Numbered from the stretch's first letter, positions 21,114 through 45,927 are shown. The stretch is DNA of 45,927 bases from a bacterium (GCA_043806935.1 JAZDGP010000016.1:1-45927), one strand, 5' to 3'. Numbers and translations are program-made. Notes: generated by a model not told the origin, from the sequence alone.

Positions 21114-21115
21114 CT

Positions 21116-22156
21116 ATGATTTACGTCGCGAAACCCAACGCCAAAGAAAAAGCCTTTATTGCCTTGCTTAAGAAATCAAGAAGGTTAATATTGGTCTTTT
21201 TGAGCGGTAAGAAAAATATCTCGCCGACCTATTTTGAAACGATAGTTTTTGAACAAATGCGTGAAGCGGCAAAAGGCACGACTTTCGAGGGAACAGTTAA
21301 ACAAACAGGAACACACGCTTTTCCTGACATCATCGCCAATAAATACTTTGGCGTCGAAGTTAAGATGACGGCCAACGATCATTGGACTTCAACCGGAAAT
21401 AGCGTTCTTGAATCTTCACGAATCGAAGACGTTGAAAGAATTTATATCGTGTTTGGAAAATTCGGCGGCAAGTTGGACATTCGCTACCGACTTTACCAAG
21501 AATGTTTGCCGGAAATTAGCGTTACCCATTCTCCCCGCTACCGAATAAACATGGACTTACCTTCGGGCAAAACAATTTTCGATAAAATTGGCGCTGATTA
21601 CGACACATTACGGAATGATCCTAACCCAATTCAAAAAATCAAGGATTACTACCGTTCACGATTGAAAGATGGTGAGGAATTGTGGTGGATAGATCAAGAC
21701 GGAGACGGAAAAGCGGTTAGTCCGATCATTAAACCTTTCAGAGGTTTAAGCGACAAAGAAAAAGAAAATTTCGTGGTTGAGGCGATGATTCTGTTTCCTG
21801 AAATGTTTGGCAACAACTCGATGAAGTTTGAGCGAGCGGCCGCCTATCTTATCGCTGAATACAACGCCGTATCCGCTAACTTGCGAGATTTGTTCACGGC
21901 TGGCGGACAAAAGAAATTAAAAGTTAAAAACAAACACGTCGTTGTGCCACAATTAGCTTATCGCTTGCGTGTCAGAGCGAAAGCGATTAAAAAGAAAATC
22001 AAGGGGCTGGACGCCAAAACTCTCGCTTACTATTGGCGAAGCGATAAGTTGAAAAGCGATCGTTTGAAGCAGTGGAAAAAACTTTTGAACGATAAATTCG
22101 TCCTTGTTAAGTCCGGCGTCAAGGCTTCCGACATTTTTGACGCAGGACTTTTATAA
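21116..22156 (+). CDS. Putative type II restriction endonuclease (PD-ExK fold)
   Basis: 346 aa. It starts 2 nt after the methyltransferase stop. It carries a PD-x10-EVK motif (AFPDIIANKYFGVEVKMT). No other family was recognised. Confidence 0.55.
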   Translation: MIYVAKPNAKEKAFIALLKKSRRLILVFLSGKKNISPTYFETIVFEQMREAAKGTTFEGTVKQTGTHAFPDIIANKYFGVEVKMTANDHWTSTGNSVLESSRIEDVERIYIVFGKFGGKLDIRYRLYQECLPEISVTHSPRYRINMDLPSGKTIFDKIGADYDTLRNDPNPIQKIKDYYRSRLKDGEELWWIDQDGDGKAVSPIIKPFRGLSDKEKENFVVEAMILFPEMFGNNSMKFERAAAYLIAEYNAVSANLRDLFTAGGQKKLKVKNKHVVVPQLAYRLRVRAKAIKKKIKGLDAKTLAYYWRSDKLKSDRLKQWKKLLNDKFVLVKSGVKASDIFDAGLL

Positions 22157-22161
22157 AAAAG

Positions 22162-22596
22162 ATGAAAAATTATTTAAATAGGAATTTCAAAAAAGAACGG
22201 AGCGACGACTTGCTCCCGACAAAAAAGCGATCGGAGCTGATGTCGAAAATCCGCTCAAGAGACACCAAGTTTGAGAAAGAATTTATCGCCGCTTTACGGA
22301 AGGCCACTCGCAAAAAATTCCAAACGAACGTCGCTTCGATCAAAGGAAAACCGGATATAGTTTTTCAGAAAGACAAAATTTGTATTTTCCTTGATAGTAA
22401 CTTTTGGCATGGTTGGTATTATCCCCGCTGGAAACACCTGTTAAAAAACGATTTTTGGCGGGAGAAAATAGAAAATAACCGCAAACGAGACAGAAAAACT
22501 ACCGTTTATTTGAGAAAAAATAGTTGGTCCGTTTTGCGTTACTGGGAACATCAGATAAAAAATCCAGACAAAAGTATTAGAAAAATTTTGAAATAA
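22162..22596 (+). CDS. vsr: Very-short-patch repair endonuclease
   Basis: 144 aa. It has [16 protein letters not shown]...KPDIVF...[11 protein letters not shown]...[10 protein letters not shown]...LRYWEH, which match Vsr hallmarks. Confidence 0.9.
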
Positions 22597-24887: not shown

Positions 24888-25742
24888 CTACGGATAAATA
24901 AAGCCCTCTCCGTCTATCTCTATCACGACATCCCCTTTGTAATCAGTTCTTAATATATTCACTTTCCTTTTCTGCAACCGCCACAGCGTCTGAAACGTAG
25001 GGTGTCCAAACTGGTTCTTCCCCACTGAAACCACTGCCAGTAAAGGTTTCACGGCGTTTAAAAACCTTTCACTGGAAGAATACTTGCTCCCATGGTGGCC
25101 TACTTTTAAAATATCAGCTTTAAGGTCAAAACCCTTAGTTAATAAAACATTTTCTTCCTCAATGCCAGTATCCCCAACTGTCAAAATACATTTCATTTTA
25201 TAGCACACCTTCATCACCACGGAAGACTCATTAGTGGAAACATTGCTTTTGCTTAAATCTTCATCGGGATACAGATACTCTATCCACGCTTCTCCATATC
25301 GTACAACTCTTCCTTCCTTCTGGTACGTCACCACAGCCCCATTTTTCGCTTCTTTCTCTACTGCCTGCTCCCACGCTTCATATGTCTTACTCTTAATCTT
25401 CACTCCGGTAAGCACAATCTCTCCAACAGAATAACGTCCCAGCACTGGTATCAACCCTGTTAAATGGTCAGAATCTCCATGAGTAAGCACCACGGTGTCC
25501 AGCTTCTGCCTCCAGACAGGCAAGTGCCTTCCCAAGCAATCCAGCACTGACCTGTCAGGTCCGCCATCCACCAGCACACGCTCGCCAGTTGGAAAAGAAA
25601 ACAACAGAGCGTCCCCTTGCCCCACATCACAAGCGACAAATGTAAGTTTTGGCTGTTGGTGAACCAATATCCAAACCGTAAAACTAACCGCTAAAACAAA
25701 CAACACTCCCACATACCACCAATATTTCTTTTGCCAAGTCAT
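24888..25742 (-). CDS. comEC: ComEC C-terminal metallo-beta-lactamase domain as a separate ORF
   Basis: 284 aa. It has one N-terminal TM helix, then DVGQGDALLF and LTHGDSDHLTG (HxHxDH-type) motifs. Its ATG overlaps the TGA of the upstream ORF (ATGA). Confidence 0.85.
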   Translation of the reverse strand: MTWQKKYWWYVGVLFVLAVSFTVWILVHQQPKLTFVACDVGQGDALLFSFPTGERVLVDGGPDRSVLDCLGRHLPVWRQKLDTVVLTHGDSDHLTGLIPVLGRYSVGEIVLTGVKIKSKTYEAWEQAVEKEAKNGAVVTYQKEGRVVRYGEAWIEYLYPDEDLSKSNVSTNESSVVMKVCYKMKCILTVGDTGIEEENVLLTKGFDLKADILKVGHHGSKYSSSERFLNAVKPLLAVVSVGKNQFGHPTFQTLWRLQKRKVNILRTDYKGDVVIEIDGEGFIYP

Positions 25743-27046
25743 AATTTATTAACGTCAATGTAAGCATACGGCAAACCAGCACACCAGGAAATGATCCAAA
25801 CAACGTATTTCAATAGAAAGAGAGATGGCCAAGCTATAATCTTTCCCAATGGAAGCCAAACCATTCCGCCAGCTATTGCAATGGCTGACAATGCCATTGT
25901 GTATGGAATGGACCAAAGGATGAGGATATTAGCGAGCGGAGCGACTAAAGAAATGAGCCCGAAGTTAAAGACAATCACCGGCAGTGTAGCGATGGTTGCG
26001 GACAGAGTGGAGGTAAGATTCTCTTTTAATCCAAAATATTCAGGCAGGCGTGTAAGATGCGGTTCAAGTAGAGGAGTGATATAAACCAAACCAACTGTCG
26101 CTAAGAAAGATAGTTGGAATCCAACGTCGTATATTAAAACAAACGGATTGAGTATAGCCATTACGCTGGCAGTAACCAGCAACACTCGCCCTATAGCCAT
26201 TGGCCTTCCCAACTGTTTCCCTAACACCGCGATGCTTCCCATAATCCCAGCTCTTACCACAGCCGCTGACGCCCCAGTGATAAGCACGAAACAAAATAAG
26301 ATAGACAAAAGGACTGGCACGTTCTGCTTGCGGTTAATGCCAAGCCATGGCAAGACGGAAGCTATGCCTGCCAGCAAGATAGTGACATTGTATCCAGACA
26401 CTGCCAATGTATGGCTGACTCCAGCAAGTTGGAAATCTGTTTGCACTTTCTTGTCCAAAGACGCTCTGCCTCCCCACAATATGCCAGCCACCAAGGAACT
26501 GGACGGCTCCGGCCATAGCTGGTTGGTGAGGGAGATCAGGTAAGACTTGAAACTCAACAATTGTTTCAATCCTTGCTGGATAATAGATAAATCGTTTGTA
26601 TCAACTGTTGTTACTGTTTTAGCTTTAAACAAACCAATTGGAGTCCCAGCCATTCCTTTGCGGAAACGGTCATCCACCAGTTTCCCTTCCCCTTTCCAAC
26701 GTTGTCCATAAGACACCGCTGGATACATACTGGCAGACACTAACAACGGTTTTGCAAAACCAGCCGTCTCTAAATTAAACTGCTGGTAATTATCTCTTAC
26801 AGCCACTTCATTAACAACGATGCCTGTCAAAGCAACGTTTTTACCTAATGGAGGCAAATAATCCACTACAGGAAGTGTGATTACCGCCTTAATCAAACCA
26901 ATTGCCACTCCAAGCGCCAGCCAACGGAAACGTTTAGGCAGTAATCCGCCAACAACTGCCAGCAACCCAAACCAAGCGCCAGCCACGCTCCCGACCGCCG
27001 TGCCTAAAAGAAAACCAATTAATGTAAGAGTGAATTTTTTGTCCAC
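25739..27046 (-). CDS. comEC: ComEC/Rec2 N-terminal OB-fold plus polytopic competence (channel) domain
   Basis: 435 aa. It has an OB-fold (DUF4131-like) region, then a multi-TM segment including LAGVSHTLAVSGYNVTIL. Confidence 0.85.
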   Translation of the reverse strand: MDKKFTLTLIGFLLGTAVGSVAGAWFGLLAVVGGLLPKRFRWLALGVAIGLIKAVITLPVVDYLPPLGKNVALTGIVVNEVAVRDNYQQFNLETAGFAKPLLVSASMYPAVSYGQRWKGEGKLVDDRFRKGMAGTPIGLFKAKTVTTVDTNDLSIIQQGLKQLLSFKSYLISLTNQLWPEPSSSLVAGILWGGRASLDKKVQTDFQLAGVSHTLAVSGYNVTILLAGIASVLPWLGINRKQNVPVLLSILFCFVLITGASAAVVRAGIMGSIAVLGKQLGRPMAIGRVLLVTASVMAILNPFVLIYDVGFQLSFLATVGLVYITPLLEPHLTRLPEYFGLKENLTSTLSATIATLPVIVFNFGLISLVAPLANILILWSIPYTMALSAIAIAGGMVWLPLGKIIAWPSLFLLKYVVWIISWCAGLPYAYIDVNKL

Positions 27047-32851: not shown

Positions 32852-33267
32852 AATTTAGCTAAAATCTTTTCCTGTAAAGCAATCATTACATTCTCTTCCT
32901 TCTTGCCGAGTTCATGGTCATACCCCAAAAGATGAAGAAAACCATGAATCAACAACCTGTTGAATTCTTCCTTTACAGCCTCTCCGTACTCATTCGCTTG
33001 CTTCTTACAGACAGTCCAGCAAATGACCACCTCTCCTCCCCTCTCTTTCTCTCCTTCTGGAAACGCAAGCACGTCAGTAGGATAATCCTTCTTTCTATAC
33101 AACCCATTCCACTTCCTGCTCTCCGCCTCCCCCACAACCGCTACTGACACTGTTATCAACCGTTTCCCAGACAGCTGTTCTGTTATATTCACTGCCTTCT
33201 CTAATTGTTTCTGTCTGGTAAAAGTGGGACGAATGCTCTTCACCAGCCAATTAACTTCAACAATCAT
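32842..33267 (-). CDS. ybeY: rRNA maturation endoribonuclease YbeY
   Basis: 141 aa. It has the zinc motif HGFLHLLGYDH. Confidence 0.9.
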   Translation of the reverse strand: MIVEVNWLVKSIRPTFTRQKQLEKAVNITEQLSGKRLITVSVAVVGEAESRKWNGLYRKKDYPTDVLAFPEGEKERGGEVVICWTVCKKQANEYGEAVKEEFNRLLIHGFLHLLGYDHELGKKEENVMIALQEKILAKLCL

Positions 33268-34622
33268 TGGCTGACATTAAAAGTCCAGCTCTTCCTCATC
33301 ATGGCGAATGTTGTCAAGAAATTAACGCTTCCTGGATCTTCCACGCCAAGATAGAACATGCCATACACCCGTCCTTTAACAGCTACGTAAACAAACGAGC
33401 CGTCTAAACCAGTAATTGCTGTAAGCCCATTAACTGTTGCCTCGCTAACAGATTCCCTCTTGCCTCCCCTGCTAACGTACCAATCCAACAATTGCTGGTT
33501 CTGGTCATTCTCTAAAGCAAGAATTTCAATCACTTCTCCAGTTTCTGGAGGAGTAAACAATACGGTTCTTCCATCACTGCCAACAGGGCTGTCAGCGGCC
33601 CAAGAGCTTGGATACAACAACTGGTAGCCGTACACATCATTACGGTACGGCTTTACCAAACCGCTCTCAATCAGCAAAGCAGTGGCATTGCCAGAACCAG
33701 GACTGTACAGATTCCTAACTTCTGTTCCATCTAAATAACTGTCTCCATCACTATCAGGATTATTAGAATCTGACCTATATAACGTTTCCTCGCTGTCAGT
33801 CAAACCGTCATTGTCAGTATCAGTGGCTGGACGCAGTGTTTCTCCAACTGACACAGGAAGCTCTGGAGATGGAGTTGGTTGTTTGCGCTTAGTTAACGCT
33901 TGGCTAGACACCACTGCCACTATACCTGACGGCAGAGATGTAATAACCGCCCGAGCTTGGTTCTGGTTGACATCCACTGTTGCTCCAGGAATTGGCTGGT
34001 ATGATCCGTCTGGAGACAAGGTCGCCATTATCAAACTGGATTCATTGCCGCCAGTAGCGGCAATGTCAGTATCAAAATAAGTTAAGATTAAAATAACTGG
34101 AGAAGAAAAAGTAAAACCACTAGGAGACAGCTGGTACTTTCCTCCAACCACCAGGCCGTTATCCAACGCTGATAACGCTATAGCCATCGCTTCCAACTTA
34201 GGAGAAGACGCGGACAAACTAGCAGCCACAGACGCTGGAATTTGAAGAGCCAATGATCCTAATGTTCTCCCTTGCCCGTCTTTAGCTTCAGCAGTAACTG
34301 TTATCGGAACAGGAGTAGACGGTACTGCTGCTGGACGATTCAAAGGTTGAGGAGCAGGACGGCTGACATACCAATAGACAGTAGCGCCTAAAGCAGCCAC
34401 TACCACCGCTACAGCTAATCCAATCACCCACACCAGCCAGCGAGGCTTAGCTGACACTGGAGTACTGATAGCTTCAGCTACTCCCGCGGTACGTTTTGCC
34501 ATTGGGATTTCCACTGGCTGTAGAGGAACAGCTATCTCTTTGGGCATCAAACGAAAGCGCGACTCATCAACGGTCACTACATTTCCCGGCTTTGTTTCTT
34601 CTTTCCGCCCAAACCACTTCAT
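33264..34622 (-). CDS. Hypothetical single-pass membrane protein with thrombospondin-type-3-like Ca-binding repeats
   Basis: 452 aa. It has the TM helix WLVWVIGLAVAVVVAALGATVYWY and the external motifs TDTDNDGLTDSEE and NNPDSDGDSYLDGTE. Confidence 0.65.
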   Translation of the reverse strand: MKWFGRKEETKPGNVVTVDESRFRLMPKEIAVPLQPVEIPMAKRTAGVAEAISTPVSAKPRWLVWVIGLAVAVVVAALGATVYWYVSRPAPQPLNRPAAVPSTPVPITVTAEAKDGQGRTLGSLALQIPASVAASLSASSPKLEAMAIALSALDNGLVVGGKYQLSPSGFTFSSPVILILTYFDTDIAATGGNESSLIMATLSPDGSYQPIPGATVDVNQNQARAVITSLPSGIVAVVSSQALTKRKQPTPSPELPVSVGETLRPATDTDNDGLTDSEETLYRSDSNNPDSDGDSYLDGTEVRNLYSPGSGNATALLIESGLVKPYRNDVYGYQLLYPSSWAADSPVGSDGRTVLFTPPETGEVIEILALENDQNQQLLDWYVSRGGKRESVSEATVNGLTAITGLDGSFVYVAVKGRVYGMFYLGVEDPGSVNFLTTFAMMRKSWTFNVSQ

Positions 34623-34626: not shown

Positions 34627-35274
34627 TTACTGCCCTTGCCCAGGCACTAACAGCAACTTACCCTCTCCACGCGGATTATACCCATTCTTCACTTCAGCTC
34701 CGTCAGGATAAGAATCATTGTCAGTATCCTGGCGCAATGGATCTGTTTGGTATACCTTCACCTCTTCACTATCAGACAAACCGTCTCCATCAGTATCAGG
34801 ATTGCGTGGATCAGTCTTGTATTGGTACAGCTCGTCGTAATCAAGCAACTGGTCAAAATCAGTATCCTGCGCTTTCAGCTGCTTAACCTGTTCTGGCAGC
34901 AGTTGGTTAGCGTCTTTTGGCAATTCGTCAAAATTAGTAATTGCTTGTTGTACTTGCTGTTCAACAGGCGGAAAAGGGACAACTGCTGATTTTTCTACAG
35001 GAGCCTTGGGAACTGGCTGTGGAGCGACAGATGGAGTTTGGTATGAATCGTAGACAAGAACAGCGATACCGGCAAGAATAGCCACTGCCGCTATGATTGC
35101 AATTACTAGCAATGACTTACGCCAAGGAAAGGGAGCGGATGGCACAGCTGGCGCTGGCTGACTGACTGACGGAGGCACAGTTGGAGCTGACGCTGGCTTG
35201 CTGTCCACTTTGGCAAAAATGTCTTCCGGCTCTTTGCCTAAGGCTGGCGGATTGGAAGGGATGTTATCAAACAT
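34627..35274 (-). CDS. Hypothetical single-pass membrane protein with thrombospondin-type-3-like Ca-binding repeats
   Basis: 215 aa. It has a Pro-rich N-terminus, the TM helix LLVIAIIAAVAILAGIAVLVY, and the motifs DPRNPDTDGDGLSDSEE and DPLRQDTDNDSYPDGAE. Confidence 0.65.
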   Translation of the reverse strand: MFDNIPSNPPALGKEPEDIFAKVDSKPASAPTVPPSVSQPAPAVPSAPFPWRKSLLVIAIIAAVAILAGIAVLVYDSYQTPSVAPQPVPKAPVEKSAVVPFPPVEQQVQQAITNFDELPKDANQLLPEQVKQLKAQDTDFDQLLDYDELYQYKTDPRNPDTDGDGLSDSEEVKVYQTDPLRQDTDNDSYPDGAEVKNGYNPRGEGKLLLVPGQGQ

Positions 35275-35345: not shown

Positions 35346-38300
35346 TCATTCAACTCCACTACAACTACCCTGCGTATCCTGAGTACAAGTGGTATTACAA
35401 CAACCATTGTTACCATTACGAGATTCGTCATCGCACTTCTCCGGCCACTGCACAGTGCCATCACCGCAATTCCAGCTGTACCTGCAATACGTGTCTGCTC
35501 CAGCGTAACAGTAAGTATTGGCAGTATCAGTAATCCACGTCGCTCCGCTCTCTCCAATATGAGTCGGCCAGCCATTGCCGCATCTATTGCCTGGTGATTG
35601 GTAATACTCGCCTCCAGACAATACTGCTGTTGACCATAAGCTATCATCATACTCACGTTCTTTCCATGTCTTGTTAGCCACATCAGGAGCTATATTCTTG
35701 CATTTCCAGCCATTCCCTACTCCGGTCTTCAGGGAAGAATTAACAACCGGGCTATAGAAAGTGCCGATCACGCCAATAGCAGAATTGCCTGGCGTGGTAT
35801 TGTTTCCTTTCAATACCAACGCATTCTTGCCAGCCATCATCTTGTCAGCAGTAATGTCAAAGACAGATTTGCCATAATTAGTTGAACTGACACCGTCATA
35901 CTTAGCCATCCAGCCGTCAACATCCTGCGCTTTCAGCTCTGTGTCATTCAAGAATCCACTGACATAATCCTTGCCCAAGATTCTTGACTTAGGCATAACG
36001 CACTGGTTGTTGGATAATGAACCTGGTTCGTAACAAACTAATGCCTCGCAAGTCGTGCCATAAGCAGCGCAGCTGTTGGCGCACAGCCTTCTCCCAACCA
36101 TAGTATAACTATTAGTGCAATAACTATAGTTCTGGTCGCAGATCTCGCTTGATCCGATCGTCCCATCATTACAGCTATCTGTTGGAGCGTAAGATTCTCC
36201 TAAAACAAACTCAACTTTCTCGATCATGGCATTAGCGTCTCTTGTAACTCCGCCGCATTTTGGATTGCTGTTCGGACAATAATAATCATTCTTCCATTCA
36301 AGTAGCAAACCGTAAGTGCCAGTCTTTGGAAGATCGCCCAAAGGCACTGTCCATGTATGAGACTTAGCTGGCACCTGATACGTTCCCAACAAACGTTTGT
36401 TGCCCACCATGACAGTAGCTGTCTTCTCCACCACTCCATCCAAACCATGGACAGTCAAAGTATAAGTGGTGGTGGAAGCTGGAGTAACCGTTGCTGATCC
36501 GCCGCTAGCTGGCGACACATTGCCAACAGTTGGATCAATACTGGCGCTCTCCGGGTAATTGCCAGCTGTCCAAACCAAATTGCTGCTACTTCCTGGCGTA
36601 ATAAACGACGGCTGGGCTTCAAAGGTGGCTGTTGGCGCTCCAGTCATTGTAACAGCCACTGTTTCAGTTGTTGTGCCGCTTGGTCCTACAGCAGTCAATG
36701 TATATTCAGTAGCAATAGTTGGATTAACAATAACCAGCCCACCCGATTTTGGAGACACTTCTCCAACTCCTGGATCAATCCGTACGCTAGTGGAAGCGTT
36801 GTCAGTGGTCCAGAATAACATGACTGGCTTTCCTATGCCGCTTGCTGACGGACTAGCCGTAAAACTGGTAATAACAGGAGGTGGGGTGACACTGACAGTG
36901 ATGTCACGAACAACAGAATCGATGCCGTCATCAACGATTAAACGATATGTAGTGTTAGCAGTCGGTTGGACATCCTTACTGCCAGACATTGGCAAACTAG
37001 TCCACTGCTCGCCAGTGATTAAATCTTTTAAAACAACCTTGGTCGCATCTTCTGTCGTCCAAAACACAGTAGCCGTTCCTCCAACTGGCACTCCAAGCGG
37101 ACTAACAGACAGTGAGGTGATCTTTGGACCCGTTGCTGTTAAGCTGGCCGTAATAATCACACTTACTGTAACATTTCTCTTTAAACTATCCATGCCAGTA
37201 ATAGTGTAAGTGTGTTGTCCAACAGCGCTTGGCGTTACTATGAAGGAGCCATCACAACGAGAGGTATCTAAGCTGCCGATATCAGTTAATGAAGCTGACG
37301 CCACCCGATCCGTTGTCCAAGACAATGTAACTGATTCCCCAACCGTGATTTCCGTCTTGGAAACGTCTAAAGTGACTGCCGGACCAGACGACGTGCCTCC
37401 AATCGTTACAGCCGCCGTAGCTTGACTCGTCTGTTTAGAAGCATTAGTAGCTGATAACGTATACGTAGCGCTAGCAATTGGACAAACTGTTTCAATGCCG
37501 CTGCCATTAATTACTGGAATACTGCCAACAGTCGGAGTAATTGACCCAGTAGTTGCTCCACTCGCTGTCCAAGACAAATCCACCCGTTCTCCTTCTACAA
37601 TAGTTTCCTTGCCAGCAGTCAGTGAAACAACAGGAGGTCCAACCAATGCCGCGGTTGGCGTCACCGCTCTTGGTCCAAACACTCTCGCCACCAATGATTT
37701 CCACCAGCCAGTTACTTTGTCTTCTACTTTATCCTCCTCGCCGCCACTGGTAGGTTCGATCAAAGACACATCGAATTTCAACATGCCATTCCAATTAGTA
37801 TCAGTCCAGCCAGACAAATCATCATTATAATTCTTAGTGGTAATCCTGACATATGGTTTGGAATTTTTGGTTACAACGGCTGACGTTGGAGTTGCTTTAC
37901 GTCCAGAAAACAATCCAATAGCCTTCTGCCACAAAGTTTCTTTAGGCGTCTCAAGTGAAACATAGCCTCCACCTTCATTAGTCGGAATAAATGGCAAAGT
38001 AAACTGGTACTGCCAGTTGCCAGGAGTGGAGAAACAATAGGAACCATTTCCTTCCTCATGGCAATCCCCAAATGGAGTTCCTGCTACAGTATTGCTTCCA
38101 TCATTACTTTGGTTATAAGGAACGCATTGCTTATTGAATAATACTGATTGATTATCACACTTAGTGGCTTCACAAGTCTCTAAAAATCCTTGGCAGGCTA
38201 AGGCGTCACCATAAGGACGGCAGGGTCTAATGCCACTGCCATGCTCCAATGGACAACTCACTCCTCTTGTTTCGTTATTTGCTGGATCACAAATCTCTCC

Positions 38301-41300
38301 TGTATCCACTGCTCCATTACCGCAGAGCGCTTGCAATTGTATATGCTTAACAGTCAAGACTTTGCTAACAGAGAACAATCCGGAATTAGTGGCAGCGTAT
38401 CCTGTCTTACTGGCTGTCACTTGGTACTGGCAGTTGCCTGTATATGCCACTTGGGAGAATCCATATCTGCCATTGCTGTTTGCGGTAGTCGTAGCGACCA
38501 CTGATCCATCCACTAGTTTCAATTCCACTGTAGCTTCTCCTACCTTTTCAGTGGAGCCGTCTGGCAACTTGGCTGTAATATCCCCGGCAATCGTTCTAGC
38601 TCCATTTCCAATGCCACAAGTTGGAGACATTTTAACCTCTATTGAACCAGTAGAACTTGTAAAATTAATCTTATTCTCGTTAGTCAAAGTCTTTAGCTGG
38701 TAACCAGCCGCTCCCACCATAGCTTGGTAGCCGCACTGGCTATCCCCTGGCGCCCGGTATGGCACCTCTGGAATAGAAACTCCACCGCTCGTCTGAACCG
38801 CTCCCACCGTGTCAGTCAAAATGATCTGCACTCCATTCACTGCCGTTCCAGTCTCTATATTAGTTACCATAAAATTCATGGTTCCATTCCCAGCTCCAGA
38901 ACATACAATTGGCGTACCGACCGCGCATACTGGCTGGCAAACTTCCGGCTGGCAGGTCAAATTAGAAGAAATATCTTGTCCTCCCAGACAATGCGCAGTC
39001 TCTAATCCAGGCGTGCCTGTGCCTGGATCGCACACTTCAGACACTCCTTCCACGTTTGGCGTCTGTACAATGCCGTCGCCGCAGTATGTTTCCGGCTCCA
39101 GTTCCAAACTCAAAACATAATCTTCCCCACCACGTACGTCAGTCGCTGGTGTATAATCCTGTTTCTCTCCAATCACTCCATAACCGCATAATTCGTTCAA
39201 TGAATGAAGCGACGTGGGCAAGAAACCATTCACTCCGCCACAATTCTTGCCGTTGTTGTCGCAACCGACAAAATTAACATCAGCTGCCCCCTGTACCACC
39301 GTGCCATTAGTTAAATTGTATTTAGCGGCAATACGGCTATCATTCCCTCCTCTATCCGTAACCGTAATCATTCCTCCACTCACTGTTCCGCCTGTCCGCT
39401 TATTAACTAACGAATAAGAGAAGAACGAACTGCCAGATCCGCAATATGTAGGTAAACCATTAGTACACTCCACTTCGGAACAGATGTCATTACACTGCGG
39501 CGCGTCAGCTGCTTGCTCAAAGCAGAAATAATTAGCTCCTGACGCTGACACAGCGTTCTTATCGCACACTTCGTTGAATTCAGTTTGGACAATATTGTCT
39601 CCGCAATAACCACCACAGCTTAATAACGGGTTAATAGGATCATATGCTGACGCTGACTCAGACCATTGGCAGAGGTTCCCCTCTTTCCGGGAGCAGGTCT
39701 GCACTTTAGGAGCATCATGCCAGTCAATATTGCCTCCCAAGTCATATGACAAGACGGAGCAGACGTCCCTGCTGAAATTCTTGGCGTCCAATTCGCACTG
39801 CTCCGGTCCAACCTGGTACGCTCCATCACCGCAATAGCCTTCCCTAGCGCTCGCTCCGCACTCAAATAAATACTGCGCTACTCTTAAATCGCCGCTGAAT
39901 CCAAAATCAATGCCAGGATTGTCAAACTGGGCGGAGAGATTATAAGAAAGATTTTTGAACTTATAACTGTACACTCTGCTGCCTACCGGGCATGTAAACT
40001 TTAATTTGCTCTGGTCCCAGCAAGTTTGTGGATCACTGCCAGGGCACGGACCACTGTCTTCCAAAGCGAATACGTTATAGCCTTTAAAATCAACAGTGCC
40101 ACACGCCGCAAAAGCTGGTAAAATCTTTAAATTATCCTGTTGCAAAGAAACATTGCCTCTATCTTCCACTCTGCCGCCGCTCCAATTCTTCTCTGTCCTA
40201 TCCGGATAAACCGTGTAAGCAAACGGAGCGTCTCCTAGTGATACAACTCTTCCTCCCCTTTCCATGTACTTCCTTACTAAGCTCTGCGGATCCAAAGTAC
40301 CCACAATAGTATATGGAGCGGTCATTGGCAACACCACCACTGTTCCCGCTCCATTGCTATCATCTGCCATGAAAGCGGCCAGGTCATATGCTGATGTCTT
40401 TGTGAATCCTTTGTTCTCTAAATACTTAACTAAGTTATTCTGCCCATTCCCAACTGAATAGTTACTAACATAGCTGCCTGTCCAATCGTCATAATCTGTC
40501 ATGCGGAAGTTGGGATCATAGTACACTAGACGATTGGGTTTAGCAGATACCAGATCCGTAGCGTCGCAATCTGCTCTGCCTGACAAATCATACAAGGAAG
40601 TACTGCAAATATCATAAAAATGATCTGCTGTAGGCGGCTGGCTGTCCTTCTGGTCATACAAACGGAGATAACCGGAGTTGCGGTAGCGTGGATTAGGAGT
40701 GTACAGCCAAGCTGCCGCTTGCCCGTCAGACCGTCTGGCTAACACTTTAGTGGTTGTTGAAGCGGCCACAGGACGCTCAGACTGCCAAGTTTCATTTAAC
40801 CCCCAAGCTCTTCCTTCTTCAGTGAACGTAACAGTATCATCCTGGTCGCACCAGTTAGTTGCTATCTTAACTGTTGGCGTTAATTTAGAAGATACTGTGT
40901 CGCCAAAAGTGTTTTGGGGATCAACAGGAAGAGAAATATTCAATTCCTTGCCTAAAGTCTTCTGCCAAGACGGCCAGCGTGAATTAGTATTGTTTTTGAC
41001 GTAAGTGCCGCTTGTTAACGCTGGATAGAATCCATTATGCGTACGCTGATAACTTTCCAAACCATTGGCAATGGAACGCAAATCAACATAACGTTGGAAA
41101 TCACGCTGTAGGGAACGGAGCAGAACTCCGCTACTATCTTCGTGGTTGGACAGGAACCGCCAATTCGCAAGCAACGCTTTATACACCTGCTGAGTTTCAG
41201 CTGTGGCTCCGTCATTGTATGAAATGAGATAAACATTGGTATAGAGCTTTGGCAGAGTAGCTGCTTGGGCAAATTTATTGGCAAGCAAATCTTTCATCCA

Positions 41301-44300
41301 CCCGATAAATTCCTTCCACCAATAACTCTGTACTTTTCCGCCTGATTCCCCTGGCGTAGCGCTCCCGCCTGTCTTTGTAAGGTTAAAAGCAAACACATAA
41401 GTACTACGTCCATCCTGCAACGCTGGGAATCCACCAACAGTTAGGGATCGAGGATTACCAGGATTAGGAGCGTACTTTTGGTACCAATTAGCAAGAGGCA
41501 ACTGTTCAGGGTTGCTGAACACGCGGATGCCAAGCACATCGCTGGATTGGCCAACCACTGGCAGTAAATACTCGCGCAACAGCTCCGCTTGGTTGGGTTT
41601 AGTGGAAGCAGAATCTTTCCTAATAATCCCGCTGGTCGTTTCCGTAAACTCCCCTTCCTGCTGTGTGTCATTAACCAAAGAAGGAAGACGGCTAGGAGAT
41701 TCTTTCTGCCCCCTGCAATAGGACAATTTAAAATTAAACTTACTGTCATCCAAAGACCATGGCAATTCGCAGAACTTGGCCGCTATAGGCACAGTGGCGA
41801 CTGTTGGATCCACCTGATTGCTATTAGGCTTTGCTACCACTGCCAAAAGTCCGCTTCCAAATGTCTCACTGCCTAAGCCATCTGTCTGATTCTTGGGCTT
41901 AACAGTCACGGTCTGTGAGTTATTAGCTCCATCAATCACAGACACGGCTGACGCTCCTGGATCCAAAAGCCAGTTGTAATTAGCTTCCAATGGACGTCCT
42001 TGGTCGTCATAAGCGACAGCTCTAACTGTGGCGACATCAGAGAACTTAGAAAACACAACTGAGTCAGGTTGCGGCACGTTATTCAAAAATACTTCCATAT
42101 CAATCTGTCCAATCCTGCAAACATTCTGTCCAGTGGTAAACGTCCAAACCATTGTTTGCGGCAGAATCGCTCCGTCTACTCCTCGTGGTCCATTATTTCT
42201 TCCATCAACCGCTACGGCGTATTTAGTAGTTGGTTCCAAAACCAGACTGCCCAAAGAAATCTTGACCGTACGGTTATCGTCTAAGAGCTTAGCTCTAGCT
42301 CCAAGCTGTAAACAGTATTTGCTGCCAGCTGGAGCTTCTACTCCAGACCATTCTTCTTCTCCAGCGCCGCAGCTATCCCTTACTGCCGCTAAACGCACTG
42401 TCCCGTCGTTAATAGACAACGGATCCACCAATTCTTTTACAACAATCTTTCCGTCACTGTCCTGGCAATTGCCATCAGCTAATTCAGTAGTGTTAGCAGG
42501 GCAGTACTTACCGCCAATTGAGAACTGGACAATGCTGTTGCGGCAAACATTATCAGCGCCAGGCTCCGGCTGCTGGCCGCTCACCATTAACTGGTCGCGG
42601 ATATTTAAAACAGTCAAAGGCAACGGGTTGGAAGTGATTAATTTAGGCTGTGTTTCTGGAATCGGAGCTGTCGCTGGATTAATATTGTCATAACACATAT
42701 TGCCCACAATGATGGATCCTTCAGGACAGCTTACTTTACCAGTTAGCACTGGCTTGTCTTTGACCACTCTCACCAATCCGCTCACAGCGTCATCAGCGAC
42801 CTTAAGTTGTCCGGCCGAACTGGACGCATTAATATATCCGACAACATCCATGTACATTGTGCCTAAATAATCCAGCCTACCATCATTGTTCACGTCAACC
42901 GCAGCTCCCTGCATTATGCCCATGGGGTTATGAAAATCAAAACCGCCGCCTGGTATCACTGGATAAGGAATATCATCCCGCTTAAACGTACCGTCGCCAT
43001 TGCCAAGATAAACTTTCAAAGTACCCCCTCCCACTGCTGATAAATCCAACTTCCCGTCACCATTGTAATCAGCGAGCACCAACGTGTGCTCTAACGCGCC
43101 ATTTGTCCCTGCCGCGCCCGTGGCAATGGAGATGGGTTTAGTCTGGAATGAACCATCGCCATTGCCAAGATAGGTTGCCACGGTCCGTTTGTCATCCGCT
43201 GCTAAAACCACCAAATCAGTCTTGCCGTCATTATTAACATCTCCTGAAGCAATACTCCCACGACCTCCACTGTTTTGAATACGGCTGGACTCCTGTTCAC
43301 GGAATGTACCATCACCATTGCCAAAGTAAACAGCGACAGGGGAAAATTGCGCCCACGGCACGAAAGCAACATCCAAAATACCGTCACGGTCAAAGTCGCC
43401 TAACGTTCCTTGGTAATACGCTTGAAGATAAACATCCGCTCTAGCTGGCAATTGTTGTTTATCCAATTGCCGGAAAGTTCCGTCGCCATTGTTCATAAAC
43501 ACCTTAAAATAGTTATCCAGCGTCGTTTGGTGGAAATTCGTACTTCCCGAGTGATTAGCCACCAAAAAATCCAATTTGCCATCACGGTCAAAGTCACCGC
43601 TTAAAGGACTCCTAGGATAAGGAAGCTCATCTGGCAATCCCTCACCGCCAGTAATCTGCCGTCCAACCTTAAAAGTACCATCTCCATTGCCCTCCAAAAG
43701 GTACATTATTGTCCTGTTGCTAGTCAGGATACCAATAACATCAGCTTTACGGTCGCCAGTGAAATCTCCAGCAATAACAGCTGACAATGTTTGTTCAAAA
43801 GGAATCATTATCTGGAAAGTGCCGTCGCCATTGCCTAAACTCACTCCGGCATTGGTGGCAATGTCCATTTTCCCGTCCTTGTTGAAATCACTTGTAACTA
43901 AACTAGAGTTTGATTTAGGCGTTGGTACCTGTAAGAAGATCTCGCTGAACACTCTGCCTGTTGTTTTGCCAATCTCAAGCGCTCTGCCACGATACGCGTT
44001 CAACACATACAGTTTGTCGTTATACACTGCCGTACCCCACAATGGATCAGCGACATACATGCTCAATCTGCCAATGGCCGCCCATTTCTCTCCACCGTCA
44101 TACCGATACAAGTATCCTGACGGATAACCAACCCCGTACAGTTTATTGTTAAAAACAACAAGCTGATGCGCGTATGTATCTTGCCCAAGCCTGCCGACTG
44201 GCGTCCATTTATCAGGCCCTTCATACCGATAGACATTCGCTTTGTCAGTCGGTACGGAAGAACCGCCTCCAACGTATAATGTATCTCCCAACGCTGCGTA

Positions 44301-45927
44301 TCCTGTTGGCCTCCGTTCTTCCGGTCGTCCCACGTAAGTCCAGATCTTAGCGCCGTCATACCTGCAGAGCCGCAAATCCCAATAATTGTACTTAGCGCGA
44401 TCCACGCACTCAGCGTACAATTTTCCGCCAAATGTCAGCATGGTGTAACGTGAATTGTCTTGAGGGTACGCTGTGCCAATTGACGTCCATTGATTATTGC
44501 CGTCATAACGATAAATTCCATAGTCACTAACCTGGGCATGCAACAGTCCGTTATAAACTAACAATTTAAAAACTACGTTAGAGAAAGATTTAAACTCTTT
44601 CCAGTCTCCAACTGCCCAATCTTCAGTGTCGTTATTCTGCTTCTCCAGCACGTACACCTTGCCAGGATTAATATCCGTCGCTCCGTACAGCTTATTCTGG
44701 TAAACAACAGTTGTTGCAAAATAAGGACGCCCTCCAGGCACTACTCCAATGCTCACGAACTGATTGCCGTTAAATCTATAAATCTTTCCTCCAGCTGACG
44801 TGTATAATTTACCGTTAAAGACAAATAATCCAACGCCATTGCCACCGCTAAAAGGAGTGAAAGGTATTGGTTTAATCACTTCAGAACCAGCTGCTAGCGA
44901 TTCGCCAGCCCCGATCTGCCCGTCTGACCAAGACACATTCTGTTGTCCCAACTCACTCCCCTGGTACTGTTTATTAGTAATCTCCACATGGTCAGTAGCT
45001 TCAGGCTGTCCTCCAAATCCTTCTCCAAACAGAGCGATGGGATCACCTGGATAAGCTTGCTTGCTGTAAGAACTGCCCTGCTGTCCCAATGGGTATGACT
45101 TGATATTGCAAAGCCCTGGCGCTAATGGTTCCTCCGCTCTCACATTAAACGTCTTGCTATTCTTGTTAGTCACCACCTGTTCTCCCTCATTCTCCACTTG
45201 TACAAAGTACGTAACCGCTCCCACCGGAACTTTGGTGATAATAGTCGTGTCTGACCAAGTCTCCCCACACGTCGCTGGCAAAGGAGCAGCCTCAAGCCAA
45301 CTACCAACACAAGAACCGTTATTAACTTCAGAACAGAATCTCACAAAAGACTTATCTCCCTTTCTCCCAAACCCCTGCCCAGTAATCGTCACCCAGCTTC
45401 CAACTGGACCATGATCAGGTTCCAGAGAAATAATCTTAGGAGGCGTATGGAACGAAGCCTCATTGCTTACATTGTCTGGCGTAACCACCGCTACCTGCGC
45501 GTTGCCTTCACTGACGTAAATGCCTTTCTCCGGAACACCAGGGAGTTCCACTACTATCTCATTATTAGTCCAACTGGAAAGATCATCCACGGTTGCGTTT
45601 AACCGTCCGCTGTCAATCTTGGTGAAACTCAATCCAGTCGCCGCTGGCTGGCTCTGCGCTCTGGCTGGCAACGGCGTCCAAGCAAAAGATTTTCCTTGTG
45701 CTTGGGTGATCACTCCCTTTGCGTAATAATTAGCAATCTCTGTTTCAGACAATGTCCGGTTGAATATCGCCACCTCGTCGATTAAACCGTCAAAAGAAGT
45801 GGCGCCGCTCCTACCGATCCAGATTGGATCAGCGGTGTAGGTAAGGGTGCCTCTCCAATTATTCGACCGCTCTGGGTTGTTGTGCACGCCGTCAAGATAC
45901 AGCCGCTGTTGTCCATCCTTATAAGTA
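35346..45927 (-). CDS. Giant mosaic exoprotein of more than 3,526 aa; N-terminus lies outside the window
   Basis: It is a single open frame. The codons upstream of the track's GTG (45887) remain open (..TYKDGQQRLYLDG-VHNNPERS..) and continue a LamG-like domain. Recognisable modules are LamG, IPT-like, Kelch-like and FG-GAP propellers, CGDG..CD Cys-rich repeats, CarboxypepD_reg-like units and Ig-like tandem repeats. Confidence 0.85.
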   Translation of the reverse strand, partial: TYKDGQQRLYLDGVHNNPERSNNWRGTLTYTADPIWIGRSGATSFDGLIDEVAIFNRTLSETEIANYYAKGVITQAQGKSFAWTPLPARAQSQPAATGLSFTKIDSGRLNATVDDLSSWTNNEIVVELPGVPEKGIYVSEGNAQVAVVTPDNVSNEASFHTPPKIISLEPDHGPVGSWVTITGQGFGRKGDKSFVRFCSEVNNGSCVGSWLEAAPLPATCGETWSDTTIITKVPVGAVTYFVQVENEGEQVVTNKNSKTFNVRAEEPLAPGLCNIKSYPLGQQGSSYSKQAYPGDPIALFGEGFGGQPEATDHVEITNKQYQGSELGQQNVSWSDGQIGAGESLAAGSEVIKPIPFTPFSGGNGVGLFVFNGKLYTSAGGKIYRFNGNQFVSIGVVPGGRPYFATTVVYQNKLYGATDINPGKVYVLEKQNNDTEDWAVGDWKEFKSFSNVVFKLLVYNGLLHAQVSDYGIYRYDGNNQWTSIGTAYPQDNSRYTMLTFGGKLYAECVDRAKYNYWDLRLCRYDGAKIWTYVGRPEERRPTGYAALGDTLYVGGGSSVPTDKANVYRYEGPDKWTPVGRLGQDTYAHQLVVFNNKLYGVGYPSGYLYRYDGGEKWAAIGRLSMYVADPLWGTAVYNDKLYVLNAYRGRALEIGKTTGRVFSEIFLQVPTPKSNSSLVTSDFNKDGKMDIATNAGVSLGNGDGTFQIMIPFEQTLSAVIAGDFTGDRKADVIGILTSNRTIMYLLEGNGDGTFKVGRQITGGEGLPDELPYPRSPLSGDFDRDGKLDFLVANHSGSTNFHQTTLDNYFKVFMNNGDGTFRQLDKQQLPARADVYLQAYYQGTLGDFDRDGILDVAFVPWAQFSPVAVYFGNGDGTFREQESSRIQNSGGRGSIASGDVNNDGKTDLVVLAADDKRTVATYLGNGDGSFQTKPISIATGAAGTNGALEHTLVLADYNGDGKLDLSAVGGGTLKVYLGNGDGTFKRDDIPYPVIPGGGFDFHNPMGIMQGAAVDVNNDGRLDYLGTMYMDVVGYINASSSAGQLKVADDAVSGLVRVVKDKPVLTGKVSCPEGSIIVGNMCYDNINPATAPIPETQPKLITSNPLPLTVLNIRDQLMVSGQQPEPGADNVCRNSIVQFSIGGKYCPANTTELADGNCQDSDGKIVVKELVDPLSINDGTVRLAAVRDSCGAGEEEWSGVEAPAGSKYCLQLGARAKLLDDNRTVKISLGSLVLEPTTKYAVAVDGRNNGPRGVDGAILPQTMVWTFTTGQNVCRIGQIDMEVFLNNVPQPDSVVFSKFSDVATVRAVAYDDQGRPLEANYNWLLDPGASAVSVIDGANNSQTVTVKPKNQTDGLGSETFGSGLLAVVAKPNSNQVDPTVATVPIAAKFCELPWSLDDSKFNFKLSYCRGQKESPSRLPSLVNDTQQEGEFTETTSGIIRKDSASTKPNQAELLREYLLPVVGQSSDVLGIRVFSNPEQLPLANWYQKYAPNPGNPRSLTVGGFPALQDGRSTYVFAFNLTKTGGSATPGESGGKVQSYWWKEFIGWMKDLLANKFAQAATLPKLYTNVYLISYNDGATAETQQVYKALLANWRFLSNHEDSSGVLLRSLQRDFQRYVDLRSIANGLESYQRTHNGFYPALTSGTYVKNNTNSRWPSWQKTLGKELNISLPVDPQNTFGDTVSSKLTPTVKIATNWCDQDDTVTFTEEGRAWGLNETWQSERPVAASTTTKVLARRSDGQAAAWLYTPNPRYRNSGYLRLYDQKDSQPPTADHFYDICSTSLYDLSGRADCDATDLVSAKPNRLVYYDPNFRMTDYDDWTGSYVSNYSVGNGQNNLVKYLENKGFTKTSAYDLAAFMADDSNGAGTVVVLPMTAPYTIVGTLDPQSLVRKYMERGGRVVSLGDAPFAYTVYPDRTEKNWSGGRVEDRGNVSLQQDNLKILPAFAACGTVDFKGYNVFALEDSGPCPGSDPQTCWDQSKLKFTCPVGSRVYSYKFKNLSYNLSAQFDNPGIDFGFSGDLRVAQYLFECGASAREGYCGDGAYQVGPEQCELDAKNFSRDVCSVLSYDLGGNIDWHDAPKVQTCSRKEGNLCQWSESASAYDPINPLLSCGGYCGDNIVQTEFNEVCDKNAVSASGANYFCFEQAADAPQCNDICSEVECTNGLPTYCGSGSSFFSYSLVNKRTGGTVSGGMITVTDRGGNDSRIAAKYNLTNGTVVQGAADVNFVGCDNNGKNCGGVNGFLPTSLHSLNELCGYGVIGEKQDYTPATDVRGGEDYVLSLELEPETYCGDGIVQTPNVEGVSEVCDPGTGTPGLETAHCLGGQDISSNLTCQPEVCQPVCAVGTPIVCSGAGNGTMNFMVTNIETGTAVNGVQIILTDTVGAVQTSGGVSIPEVPYRAPGDSQCGYQAMVGAAGYQLKTLTNENKINFTSSTGSIEVKMSPTCGIGNGARTIAGDITAKLPDGSTEKVGEATVELKLVDGSVVATTTANSNGRYGFSQVAYTGNCQYQVTASKTGYAATNSGLFSVSKVLTVKHIQLQALCGNGAVDTGEICDPANNETRGVSCPLEHGSGIRPCRPYGDALACQGFLETCEATKCDNQSVLFNKQCVPYNQSNDGSNTVAGTPFGDCHEEGNGSYCFSTPGNWQYQFTLPFIPTNEGGGYVSLETPKETLWQKAIGLFSGRKATPTSAVVTKNSKPYVRITTKNYNDDLSGWTDTNWNGMLKFDVSLIEPTSGGEEDKVEDKVTGWWKSLVARVFGPRAVTPTAALVGPPVVSLTAGKETIVEGERVDLSWTASGATTGSITPTVGSIPVINGSGIETVCPIASATYTLSATNASKQTSQATAAVTIGGTSSGPAVTLDVSKTEITVGESVTLSWTTDRVASASLTDIGSLDTSRCDGSFIVTPSAVGQHTYTITGMDSLKRNVTVSVIITASLTATGPKITSLSVSPLGVPVGGTATVFWTTEDATKVVLKDLITGEQWTSLPMSGSKDVQPTANTTYRLIVDDGIDSVVRDITVSVTPPPVITSFTASPSASGIGKPVMLFWTTDNASTSVRIDPGVGEVSPKSGGLVIVNPTIATEYTLTAVGPSGTTTETVAVTMTGAPTATFEAQPSFITPGSSSNLVWTAGNYPESASIDPTVGNVSPASGGSATVTPASTTTYTLTVHGLDGVVEKTATVMVGNKRLLGTYQVPAKSHTWTVPLGDLPKTGTYGLLLEWKNDYYCPNSNPKCGGVTRDANAMIEKVEFVLGESYAPTDSCNDGTIGSSEICDQNYSYCTNSYTMVGRRLCANSCAAYGTTCEALVCYEPGSLSNNQCVMPKSRILGKDYVSGFLNDTELKAQDVDGWMAKYDGVSSTNYGKSVFDITADKMMAGKNALVLKGNNTTPGNSAIGVIGTFYSPVVNSSLKTGVGNGWKCKNIAPDVANKTWKEREYDDSLWSTAVLSGGEYYQSPGNRCGNGWPTHIGESGATWITDTANTYCYAGADTYCRYSWNCGDGTVQWPEKCDDESRNGNNGCCNTTCTQDTQGSCSGVE
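36410..37637 (-). repeat. Five tandem, diverged ~82-aa Ig-like modules inside the giant ORF (coordinates approximate)
   Basis: The recurrent pattern is P.I.S..A.P..I..G....L.W.T..A....I.P..G.V...G...V.P...T.Y.LTA......T..V.V. Examples are VITSFTASPSASGIGKPVMLFWTTDNAS... and ATFEAQPSFITPGSSSNLVWTAGNYPES... Confidence 0.7.
42865..43890 (-). repeat. Seven FG-GAP/VCBS-type repeats (putative 7-bladed propeller) inside the giant ORF
   Basis: The Ca-loop motifs are DFNKDGKMD, GDFTGDRKAD, GDFDRDGKLD, GDFDRDGILD, GDVNNDGKTD, ADYNGDGKLD and VDVNNDGRLD. Each is followed by ...GNGDGTF. Confidence 0.75.
43975..44840 (-). repeat. Seven Kelch-like repeats (putative second propeller) inside the giant ORF
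   Basis: The repeats are FNGKLYTS..IYRFNG, YQNKLYGA, YNGLLHAQ..IYRYDG, FGGKLYAE..LCRYDG, LGDTLYVG..VYRYEG, FNNKLYGV..LYRYDG and YNDKLYVL. Confidence 0.65.

Follow-up and report, generated by a model that had tools for sequence, protein, structure and literature searches.

A candidate giant cell-surface protein of Patescibacteria built around a conserved central module

What kind of protein is encoded by a bacterial gene that is more than 10 kb long and still runs off the end of its contig, how is it held at the cell, and what might it do there? These questions are raised by a 45,927-nt stretch of DNA (GCA_043806935.1 JAZDGP010000016.1:1-45927), here called the window, in which one giant open reading frame (ORF) occupies positions 35346-45927 of the minus strand. 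The best-supported reading of our sequence comparisons is that its product, referred to as the giant, represents the C-terminal part of a cell-surface protein of Patescibacteria (candidate phyla radiation, CPR), composed as a mosaic of domains of extracytoplasmic type. At its centre lies a module that recurs in more than a thousand protein clusters and that, together with a few other regions, appears to form a conserved scaffold for variable, lineage-specific cargo. In the following, we describe this module and the regions that flank it, and we ask what relatives and neighboring genes reveal on anchoring and function.

The central module and its family

From its cut N-terminal end to its C-terminus, the giant is made up as follows (all on the minus strand; residues are counted from the first codon in the window).

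35346-45927, minus: giant ORF, 3,526 codons plus stop; product identical to protein-library entry P0002
45732-45926, minus: LamG/ConA-like domain, C-terminal 65 residues (aa 1-65), cut by the window edge (PF13385)
44907-45644, minus: about three TIG/IPT-like beta-sandwich units (aa ~95-340; PF01833, BLASTP to homologous giants)
43932-44864, minus: predicted seven-blade Kelch-like propeller (aa ~355-665; motifs and phmmer against PDB)
42822-43919, minus: predicted seven-blade FG-GAP (integrin-alpha-type) propeller (aa ~670-1035; PF13517, PF01839)
42279-42821, minus: Cys-containing region with no Pfam or PDB sequence match (aa 1036-1216)
41622-42278, minus: pre-module region, probably Ig-like, ending in CELPW...SYC (aa 1217-1435; phmmer, BLASTP)
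40899-41621, minus: module cores A and B (aa 1436-1676; alignments and AlphaFold2, AF2)
40056-40898, minus: 281-residue insert within the module (aa 1677-1957), lacking in nearly all homologues
39837-40055, minus: module core C (aa 1958-2030), motif T-C-W...F-x-C-P-x-G-S-x-V-Y-x-Y
38007-39836, minus: four Cys-rich C(G/N)(D/N)G repeats (at aa 2032, 2108, 2282 and 2535; motif) with 36 cysteines
36399-37640, minus: five tandem repeats of ~82 residues, probably Ig-like (aa 2763-3176; internal alignment)
35349-36398, minus: Cys-rich, beta-rich C-terminal region (aa 3177-3526, 20 Cys), ending in a TIGR02232-type repeat

The original prediction, made from the sequence of the window, had passed over the region aa ~1040-2030 and with it the module that defines the family. 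A word-indexed search with a 965-residue query returned a single match; it was the exhaustive HMMER search with aa 1036-2000 that revealed the family, with 1,382 clusters (formed at 50% identity) at E ≤ 1e-3 and 1,056 at E ≤ 1e-10. Homologues that carry a source name are hypothetical proteins, nearly all from metagenome-assembled genomes (MAGs) labelled "Patescibacteria group bacterium" or Komeilibacteria; one partial match, P0157, is labelled Elusimicrobiales. What is shared amounts to about 300 residues in three pieces, core A (aa 1447-1517), core B (aa 1560-1676) and core C (aa 1958-2030). The motifs S-x-W-P-S-W and D-P-x-N are invariant in cores A and B, as are C526, T533 and W535 (alignment numbering) in core C with its T-C-W motif. 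A lineage-specific, Trp-rich insert of 42 residues (aa 1518-1559) separates core A from core B. The 281-residue insert follows core B, which in homologues runs straight into core C, and the alignment across it used spliced rows as guides. This second insert is weakly similar only to P0074, has no match among PDB sequences and received a predicted local distance difference test (pLDDT) of 25-50 in the prediction of the native module.

None of the Pfam and NCBIfam models covers the module, and its profile gave no match at E ≤ 10 against all PDB sequences. With the 281-residue insert spliced out, AF2 returned a model with a mean pLDDT of 82 and a predicted template modelling score (pTM) of 0.78, and the module was reproduced when the native sequence including the insert was predicted. 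Foldseek searches with this model found nothing in the PDB at E ≤ 1e-3 (best E 0.13, TM below 0.2) and no match among viral structures (BFVD). The predicted fold of the module is hence both confident and without a solved relative. Core B, which combines a helix with G-x-Y-P and D-P-x-N, was considered as a type IV pilin-like domain; we rejected this idea because it was supported neither by a PDB sequence match at E ≤ 10 nor by a pilin among the Foldseek results.

Three Trp-rich amphipathic segments stand out in the giant, one of them in the 42-residue insert (aa 1534-1555, nt ~41262-41327, WWKEFIGWMKDLLANKFAQAA) and two far downstream (aa ~2673-2693, nt ~37848-37910, LWQKAIGLFSGRKATPTSAVV; aa ~2742-2763, nt ~37638-37703, WWKSLVARVFGPRAVTPTAALV). 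In P0018, P0035 and P0177, a similar Trp-rich helix followed by A-x-A occupies the same loop of the module. These segments could be membrane-interacting or processing elements.

Only four parts of the giant are shared with module homologues, namely the TIG units (aa ~100-300), the pre-module region (aa ~1200-1435), the module itself and the first Cys-rich repeats. The pre-module region is common to many homologous giants, found by phmmer (P0003, P0004, P0014, P0055, P0107 and others) and by BLASTP (P0001). According to the coverage map, module homologues do not share the Kelch-like propeller, the 281-residue insert or anything past about aa 2150, and at most one of 149 has the FG-GAP propeller in common with the giant (coverage ~1 over aa 701-950). 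The propellers and the C-terminal half thus behave as variable, lineage-specific cargo on a conserved scaffold.

The gene and the flanking domains

The giant ORF comprises 3,526 sense codons without interruption, from a first codon that begins at base 45926 to a stop at 35346-35348, and takes up 10,582 of 45,927 nt or 23% of the window. Because a single base precedes the first codon, the frame is open at this edge of the window, and as the LamG match of the first 65 residues starts in mid-profile, the protein must continue upstream of the window. From the identity of the product to P0002 it follows that the deposited gene call, too, is cut off at this edge. An uninterrupted minus-strand frame of this extent, open at the edge, is what the original prediction had described; it had named breaks by stops or frameshifts as evidence to the contrary, and no stop was met in the 3,526 codons. 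DNA tandem repeats were not found within the ORF. The only dispersed DNA repeats in it are 41-nt copies of Kelch-like blades with 71-73% identity, and GC is uniform along its length at 47%. Taken together, the lack of tandem repeats, the short and diverged blade copies and the flat GC make a misassembly of the giant unlikely.

Within the 3,526 residues, of which 82 are cysteines, no transmembrane-like or hydrophobic segment was found anywhere, nor was there a GGxGxD motif or an RTX/HemolysinCabind Pfam match. The C-terminus, reading ...SCSGVE, has no LPXTG sorting signal. A sole LPKTG occurs at aa 3199-3203 (nt 36315-36329), 327 residues before the end and with neither a hydrophobic segment nor a basic tail after it, and by this sequence context it is not a canonical sortase signal. 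Any anchor of the giant must therefore be N-terminal or non-covalent. The claims that no C-terminal anchor and no enzymatic motif are visible thus held, the latter in that Pfam and NCBIfam returned no hydrolase, peptidase, Rhs/YD or toxin family.

These family scans included tiles of 450 residues with matches listed to E ≤ 1, and they bore out most of the modules proposed for the N-terminal third. PF13385 (LamG) scored 42-47 bits against a cutoff of 27.6, covering only profile positions 87-151 of 151 and hence the C-terminal part of the domain. Of the proposed IPT-like beta-sandwiches, one unit (aa 163-251) passed the PF01833 (TIG) cutoff on a tile, with 28.4 against 20.9 bits; the flanking units resemble TIG regions of homologues by BLASTP only, among them the giants of loci L001, L002, L004 and L006. 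The FG-GAP region was matched by PF13517 (E 3e-42) and PF01839 (E 1e-18), the FG-GAP/FG-GAP_3 scores reaching 143 bits (cutoff 26.9) and 67 bits (cutoff 22.1). Its seven repeats (at aa 680, 726, 778, 844, 896, 953 and 1011), six of them with D-x-(D/N)-x-D-G loops of Ca2+ type, form a predicted seven-blade propeller by both repeat count and Pfam score. The seven Kelch-like repeats fared less uniformly. Seven motifs are indeed present (at aa 370, 409, 458, 499, 546, 592 and 635, with a period of 39-49 residues), and phmmer against PDB sequences aligned the region to KLHL3 (E 5.9e-7), KLHL17 (7.9e-7) and KLHL2 (2.2e-5) with blades in register, but Pfam Kelch families gave no match at E ≤ 1 on tiles spanning aa 1-795. 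On sequence grounds, "Kelch-like" is justified for aa ~355-665, whereas strict membership of the Kelch family is not.

In the C-terminal half, the five proposed cysteine-rich CGDG repeats were all found in place (nt 39833, 39605, 39083, 38324 and 35468), and a sixth was added at nt 36173. Of the four that follow the module, three are each succeeded by a small unit of beta-sandwich type (CarboxypepD_reg/SdrD_B-like). The cutoff of TIGR02232, the family suggested for the repeats together with DUF4215, was passed by the last repeat alone (aa 3486-3517), with 25.4 against 20.8; the other five are recognized by motif alone. The carboxypeptidase-regulatory-like unit that had been seen around NSNGRYGFSQV did match PF13620 (aa 2456-2520), albeit below threshold with 27.1-30.6 bits against 32.3, and PF17210 and PF11974 matched weakly. 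The five modules described as Ig-like are true tandem repeats, with 26-36% identity and 10 invariant columns in an internal alignment, but neither Pfam nor PDB sequences gave a match to confirm the fold, which is probably Ig-like as judged from the sequence. The C-terminus proved as Cys-rich as proposed; for its 332 final residues, the word-indexed search gave no homologue and the PDB no sequence match.

A probable anchor and a gene cassette

As the window product has no anchor of its own, we turned to the 149 best module homologues. In 65 of these (median 832 aa), the module directly follows an N-terminal hydrophobic segment, and in the other 84 (median 2,152 aa) it lies deep inside a giant. 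Among the deep-module homologues 77 start with Met, and 56 of these 77 show three hydrophobic segments in the first 140 residues. All six homologue N-termini that were scanned matched PF18895 (T4SS_pilin, named after the type IV secretion system, T4SS) with 33.5-46 bits against a cutoff of 26.6, and three of the six showed weaker TrbC/VirB2 matches. In VirB2/TraA pilins, the chain beyond the second helix is extracytoplasmic. It is thus likely, going by these relatives, that the unseen N-terminus of the giant consists of a Sec signal peptide and a VirB2-like two-helix hairpin of T4SS_pilin type, which is also the simplest explanation for a product that lacks an anchor in the window. The TIG region of the giant aligns to residues ~460-800 where giants are unfused and to ~1,060-1,450 where they are fused. 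These offsets suggest that about 300-1,100 residues are missing, and the full protein is probably longer than 4,000 residues.

Two genes for putative partner proteins follow the giant on the same strand.

34627-35274, minus: TSP3a, a single-pass membrane protein of 215 aa that carries Ca2+-binding repeats of the bacterial TSP3 type (PF18884, E 3e-12)
33264-34622, minus: TSP3b, a single-pass membrane protein of 452 aa that combines a TSP3 repeat with a C-terminal domain (PF18884)

The minus-strand order in the window is giant, TSP3a, TSP3b, YbeY, DAGK, FtsA, FtsZ, NrdR, HtrA, RF and ComEC. Intergenic distances are 71 nt between giant and TSP3a, 4 nt between TSP3a and TSP3b, and -4 nt (an overlap) between TSP3b and ybeY, and no minus-strand terminator was found between giant and dagK. 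In relatives the slot reads yqeY, giant, TSP3a, TSP3b, ybeY, (dagK), ftsA, ftsZ, of which the window covers the giant and all that follows it. The order giant-TSP3a-TSP3b-YbeY recurs in L001, L004, L005 and L014. A Patescibacteria MAG (L001) carries LepB, HisS, S21, YqeY, a 3,341-aa giant with T4SS_pilin and module, TSP3a, TSP3b, YbeY and DAGK; identity to the window proteins is 56% for TSP3a (C-terminal part), 37% over 231 residues for TSP3b, 37% for YbeY and 43% for DAGK. The TSP3b orthologue of this MAG (17970-19283, 437 aa) also scores against the module HMM (hidden Markov model), with a helix followed by "GSYP ... VPQDPL", so that a core-B-like motif recurs in a second cassette protein.

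Elsewhere the same slot has the module on a gene of its own. On a 227-kb metagenomic contig (L004/L005), a T4SS_pilin protein (>984 aa) and a protein of 2,361 aa with T4SS_pilin, TIG, Big_5 and LamG are followed by a separate 447-aa module protein, a 120-aa ORF, a TSP3 protein (299 aa) and a 450-aa ORF, and then by YbeY, FtsA, FtsZ and, two genes further, NrdR. In another locus (L006), HisS, S21 and YqeY are followed by two opposite-strand genes with TGS and RelA/SpoT domains, then by a pair of T4SS_pilin proteins and by the module as a separate protein. When metagenomes were scanned with one module subfamily, 80 loci were obtained, whose six-frame ORFs we annotated with local HMMs. T4SS_pilin ORFs on the same strand lie upstream in 29 of the 40 loci with at least 6 kb of upstream sequence, and TSP3 ORFs lie within 3 kb downstream in 28 of the 32 with at least 2.5 kb of downstream sequence. 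The typical locus encodes a T4SS_pilin protein of ~900 aa, a second one of ~1,900-2,300 aa, a module protein of ~1,000-1,200 aa, TSP3a and TSP3b, a pattern that Pfam confirmed on L059. By this comparison, the gene of the window giant joins into one what are otherwise the second and third genes of the cassette. Such a fusion, in the sense of a Rosetta-stone relation, implies that the T4SS_pilin giant and the module protein work together where they are separate.

One locus comes with a conflicting label. L002 (CAZGYI010000033.1), a 9.5-kb contig of an "uncultured Gammaproteobacteria" MAG, encodes S21, YqeY and a 2,873-aa giant with T4SS_pilin and module; given this Patescibacteria synteny, the contig is probably mis-binned.

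Further features of the window lie outside the cassette.

1851-3356, minus: adjacent genes for a DsbA-like thioredoxin (PF13462/PF01323) and a DsbD/CcdA-like membrane protein (PF02683)
12218-17587, minus: second large ORF, 1,789 aa, very K/E-rich with a central Gly/Ala-rich hydrophobic stretch, no Pfam match

The DsbA/DsbD pair could serve the exported giant with its 82 cysteines. The 1,789-aa ORF is flanked by genes for a Mur ligase and an M50 peptidase. An island on the plus strand (19984-22596) in an otherwise all-minus-strand array holds tRNA-Pro(GGG), a C5 cytosine DNA methylase, a 346-aa ORF with a faint DraIII-like match and the mismatch endonuclease Vsr, and looks like a type II restriction-modification unit. 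A 69-nt direct repeat with 84% identity occurs at 10128-10196 and 10921-10989, one copy between the S12 gene and a 213-aa ORF and the other where the Mur ligase ORF has its 3' end. ComEC appears divided between two ORFs that overlap (24888-27046, minus strand), one (25739-27046) with the Competence domain, the other (24888-25742) with the metallo-beta-lactamase domain. Diversification of the giant by a diversity-generating retroelement was considered and found no support, as the 46-kb window contains no reverse transcriptase among the ORFs scanned and no direct repeat of template/variable type that touches the giant.

Possible functions and relation to known systems

We lean towards the view that the giant is an N-terminally membrane-anchored fibre, stabilised by disulfides and Ca2+, that displays variable binding domains for host contact. 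After export by Sec, the VirB2-like hairpin would keep the N-terminus in the cytoplasmic membrane with the remainder outside the cell. Disulfides, formed by the 82 cysteines with the help of the DsbA/DsbD encoded nearby, and Ca2+ bound in the FG-GAP loops could stiffen the chain, and beta-sandwich spacers (TIG, Ig-like and CarboxypepD_reg-like) may push lineage-specific binding modules away from the cell. Modules displayed in this way would be LamG, the Kelch-like and FG-GAP propellers, the unique insert and the C-terminal region. The giant might act together with the co-encoded TSP3 membrane proteins in contact with the surface of a host or partner cell, its conserved parts serving as scaffold or assembly interface and its variable parts setting ligand specificity. 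The original prediction had seen here the architecture of an adhesin or host-contact protein. Its extracytoplasmic, adhesin-type domain set was recovered, whereas what suggests the attachment role, then as now, is domain analogy only. The reduced genome of which the prediction also spoke would fit the assignment to Patescibacteria.

Several points weigh against a host-contact fibre. Adhesion-type domains are generic and are found also in enzymes and in structural envelope proteins. The fixed position beside division genes suits a housekeeping envelope role equally well. The module also occurs in short proteins outside the cassette (L088, L089): P0177 is encoded among housekeeping genes, and P0048 follows an edge-cut ORF of at least 1,650 aa with no TSP3 genes. 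It thus seems to be a general extracellular domain of Patescibacteria and not exclusive to the cassette. Furthermore, the hairpin is taken from relatives with only 24-45% identity in the module, and about 900 residues of the giant are without assignment (aa 1036-1216, 1677-1957, 2641-2762 and 3177-3485) and may hide an activity.

Alternatively, the cassette could be a conserved envelope or S-layer-like scaffold, in which the giant spaces or organises the wall or a surface layer instead of acting as a host-specific adhesin. We regard this as the strongest competitor, if an unlikely one. Genomes distant enough for YbeY and DAGK to be only 37-43% identical keep the cassette beside ybeY-ftsA-ftsZ, its spacing is operon-like with no minus-strand terminator found from giant to dagK, and it is the scaffold parts (TIG, module and TSP3 partners) that are conserved. 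However, the highly mosaic make-up of the giant with its lineage-specific propellers, insert and C-terminal half is more typical of ligand recognition under diversifying pressure. Moreover, no S-layer or SLH domain reached the Pfam cutoff; SLH stayed below threshold with 16.3 against 20.8 bits, and that inside the FG-GAP repeats.

A hairpin of pilin type raises the further question whether the T4SS of Patescibacteria might build it into a pilus, as tip, base or minor subunit, so that the ectodomain would be displayed on the pilus or nucleate it. The match of homologous giants to PF18895 above cutoff, and more weakly to TrbC/VirB2, would fit, and an extension that faces outward after the second helix is what VirB2/TraA topology leads one to expect. 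T4SSs of Patescibacteria are unusual in their VirB2-like pilins, which often come in variable arrays, and no dedicated adhesin was detected in them (PMC12102498, PMC12857230); in S. epibionticum, T4SS and pilins are essential (PMC10633639). Yet in L004 and L006 no T4SS gene comes closer than 10 kb to the cassette, none occurs in the 35 kb downstream in the window, and the hairpin of the window protein itself falls outside the window. An extension of 2,000-4,000 residues on every subunit would also be sterically incompatible with a helical pilus, which leaves at most a minor role. We hence consider a pilus-borne adhesin rather improbable.

Still less probable is that the unassigned regions conceal an enzyme or toxin domain which the array of beta-sandwiches and propellers delivers, in the manner of polymorphic toxins or of the giant proteins with which predatory Omnitrophota degrade cell walls. 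These ~900 residues offer room for one, and giant genes of other ultrasmall bacteria have been linked to cell-wall degradation (bioRxiv 10.1101/2023.11.21.568195). But the families of enzymes and toxins named above were missed even at E ≤ 1 on the 450-aa tiles, and neither the insert nor the C-terminal region has a PDB sequence match. Hardly credible, finally, is an assembly chimera or decaying pseudogene: the gene is cut by the contig end and giant repeat-bearing genes misassemble easily, but the stop-free frame at 47% GC, its uniform GC, the absence of DNA tandem repeats and the divergence of the 41-nt blade copies speak against it, as do the order of TIG, pre-module, module and Cys repeats, collinear with independent homologues, and the conserved synteny downstream.

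Returning to the membrane-anchored fibre, we may speculate one step further, and more tentatively, that the five-gene cassette (a ~900-aa T4SS_pilin protein, a T4SS_pilin giant, a module protein, separate or fused, and two TSP3 membrane proteins) is an undescribed surface apparatus found throughout the Patescibacteria. VirB2-like hairpins would have been repurposed in it as roots of giant fibres, set in the membrane or in a pilus, with the module as assembly or recognition core and swappable distal domains that set host specificity. If this were true, the apparatus would be a main organelle by which CPR bacteria contact their hosts, and one distinct from type IV pili. Type IV pili apart, little is known of how these ultrasmall bacteria recognize a host and attach to it, and giant mosaic exoproteins have been attachment candidates for a decade without an organising principle. 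The handles gained here are a module of more than 1,000 clusters with an orphan predicted fold, a likely VirB2-like hairpin anchor, which would tie the giants to the unusual T4SS pilins of Patescibacteria, and a TSP3 cassette conserved in position near ybeY-ftsA-ftsZ. The giant would be an ordinary finding if it were simply one more generic adhesin.

Large exoproteins of CPR bacteria have been reported before. In Ca. Peribacter riflensis, large Cys-rich extracellular proteins with FG-GAP and Myxococcus-type repeats were proposed to act in attachment (Anantharaman et al. 2016, PMC4736985), and in Absconditicoccaceae, very large proteins targeted to the surface contain ConA, integrin and fn3 domains (PMC13059738). 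The Saccharibacterium S. epibionticum needs envelope proteins with VCBS, dockerin and fn3 domains, in addition to T4SS and VirB2-like pilins, for epibiotic growth (PMC10633639), and a Microgenomates genome encodes signal-peptide proteins with two or more transmembrane helices and up to 2,228 aa (PMC7143001). A survey of Patescibacteria T4SSs lists small VirB2-like pilins and detected no adhesins (PMC12102498), and a 2025 review agrees (PMC12857230). Our full-text literature search found no description of T4SS_pilin-fused giants, of the module or of the TSP3 cassette, an absence that is not proof of novelty.

By its general make-up, the giant belongs to a known kind, the large Cys-rich CPR exoproteins described since 2016. 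With those of CPR bacteria and Absconditicoccaceae it has in common a length of thousands of residues, a predicted extracytoplasmic location, FG-GAP/integrin, ConA/LamG and Myxococcus-type Cys repeats, a proposed role in attachment and the concentration of variation in such proteins. These reports are descriptive, and they do not contain the central module, the T4SS_pilin N-terminus or the TSP3 cassette. VirB2-like pilins of Patescibacteria (PF18895/TrbC) show the same signal peptide and two-helix hairpin as the homologous giants (PMC12102498; PMC10633639). In contrast to these giants, whose hairpin carries 1,000-4,500 more residues and is encoded at a different locus, canonical VirB2 pilins are small and often encoded near virB4. 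The FG-GAP propeller, with seven repeats, D-x-D-x-D-G loops of Ca2+ type and strong Pfam matches, corresponds to bacterial propellers of integrin alpha type (PMC3192720). Unlike in integrins, it is one cargo module of many, with no thigh or calf legs and no beta-subunit partner. In principle, the giant would work like the RTX adhesins of type I secretion systems (T1SS), such as SiiE, LapA and MpIBP, and like the sortase-anchored adhesins of Gram-positive bacteria, in which ligand-binding modules are projected by long rows of Ig-like extenders that Ca2+ or cross-links stiffen. Instead of an RTX/T1SS signal or a C-terminal LPXTG, the giant would use an N-terminal membrane hairpin as its anchor, and where these adhesins extend by tens of near-identical repeats, the extender of the giant is a mosaic.

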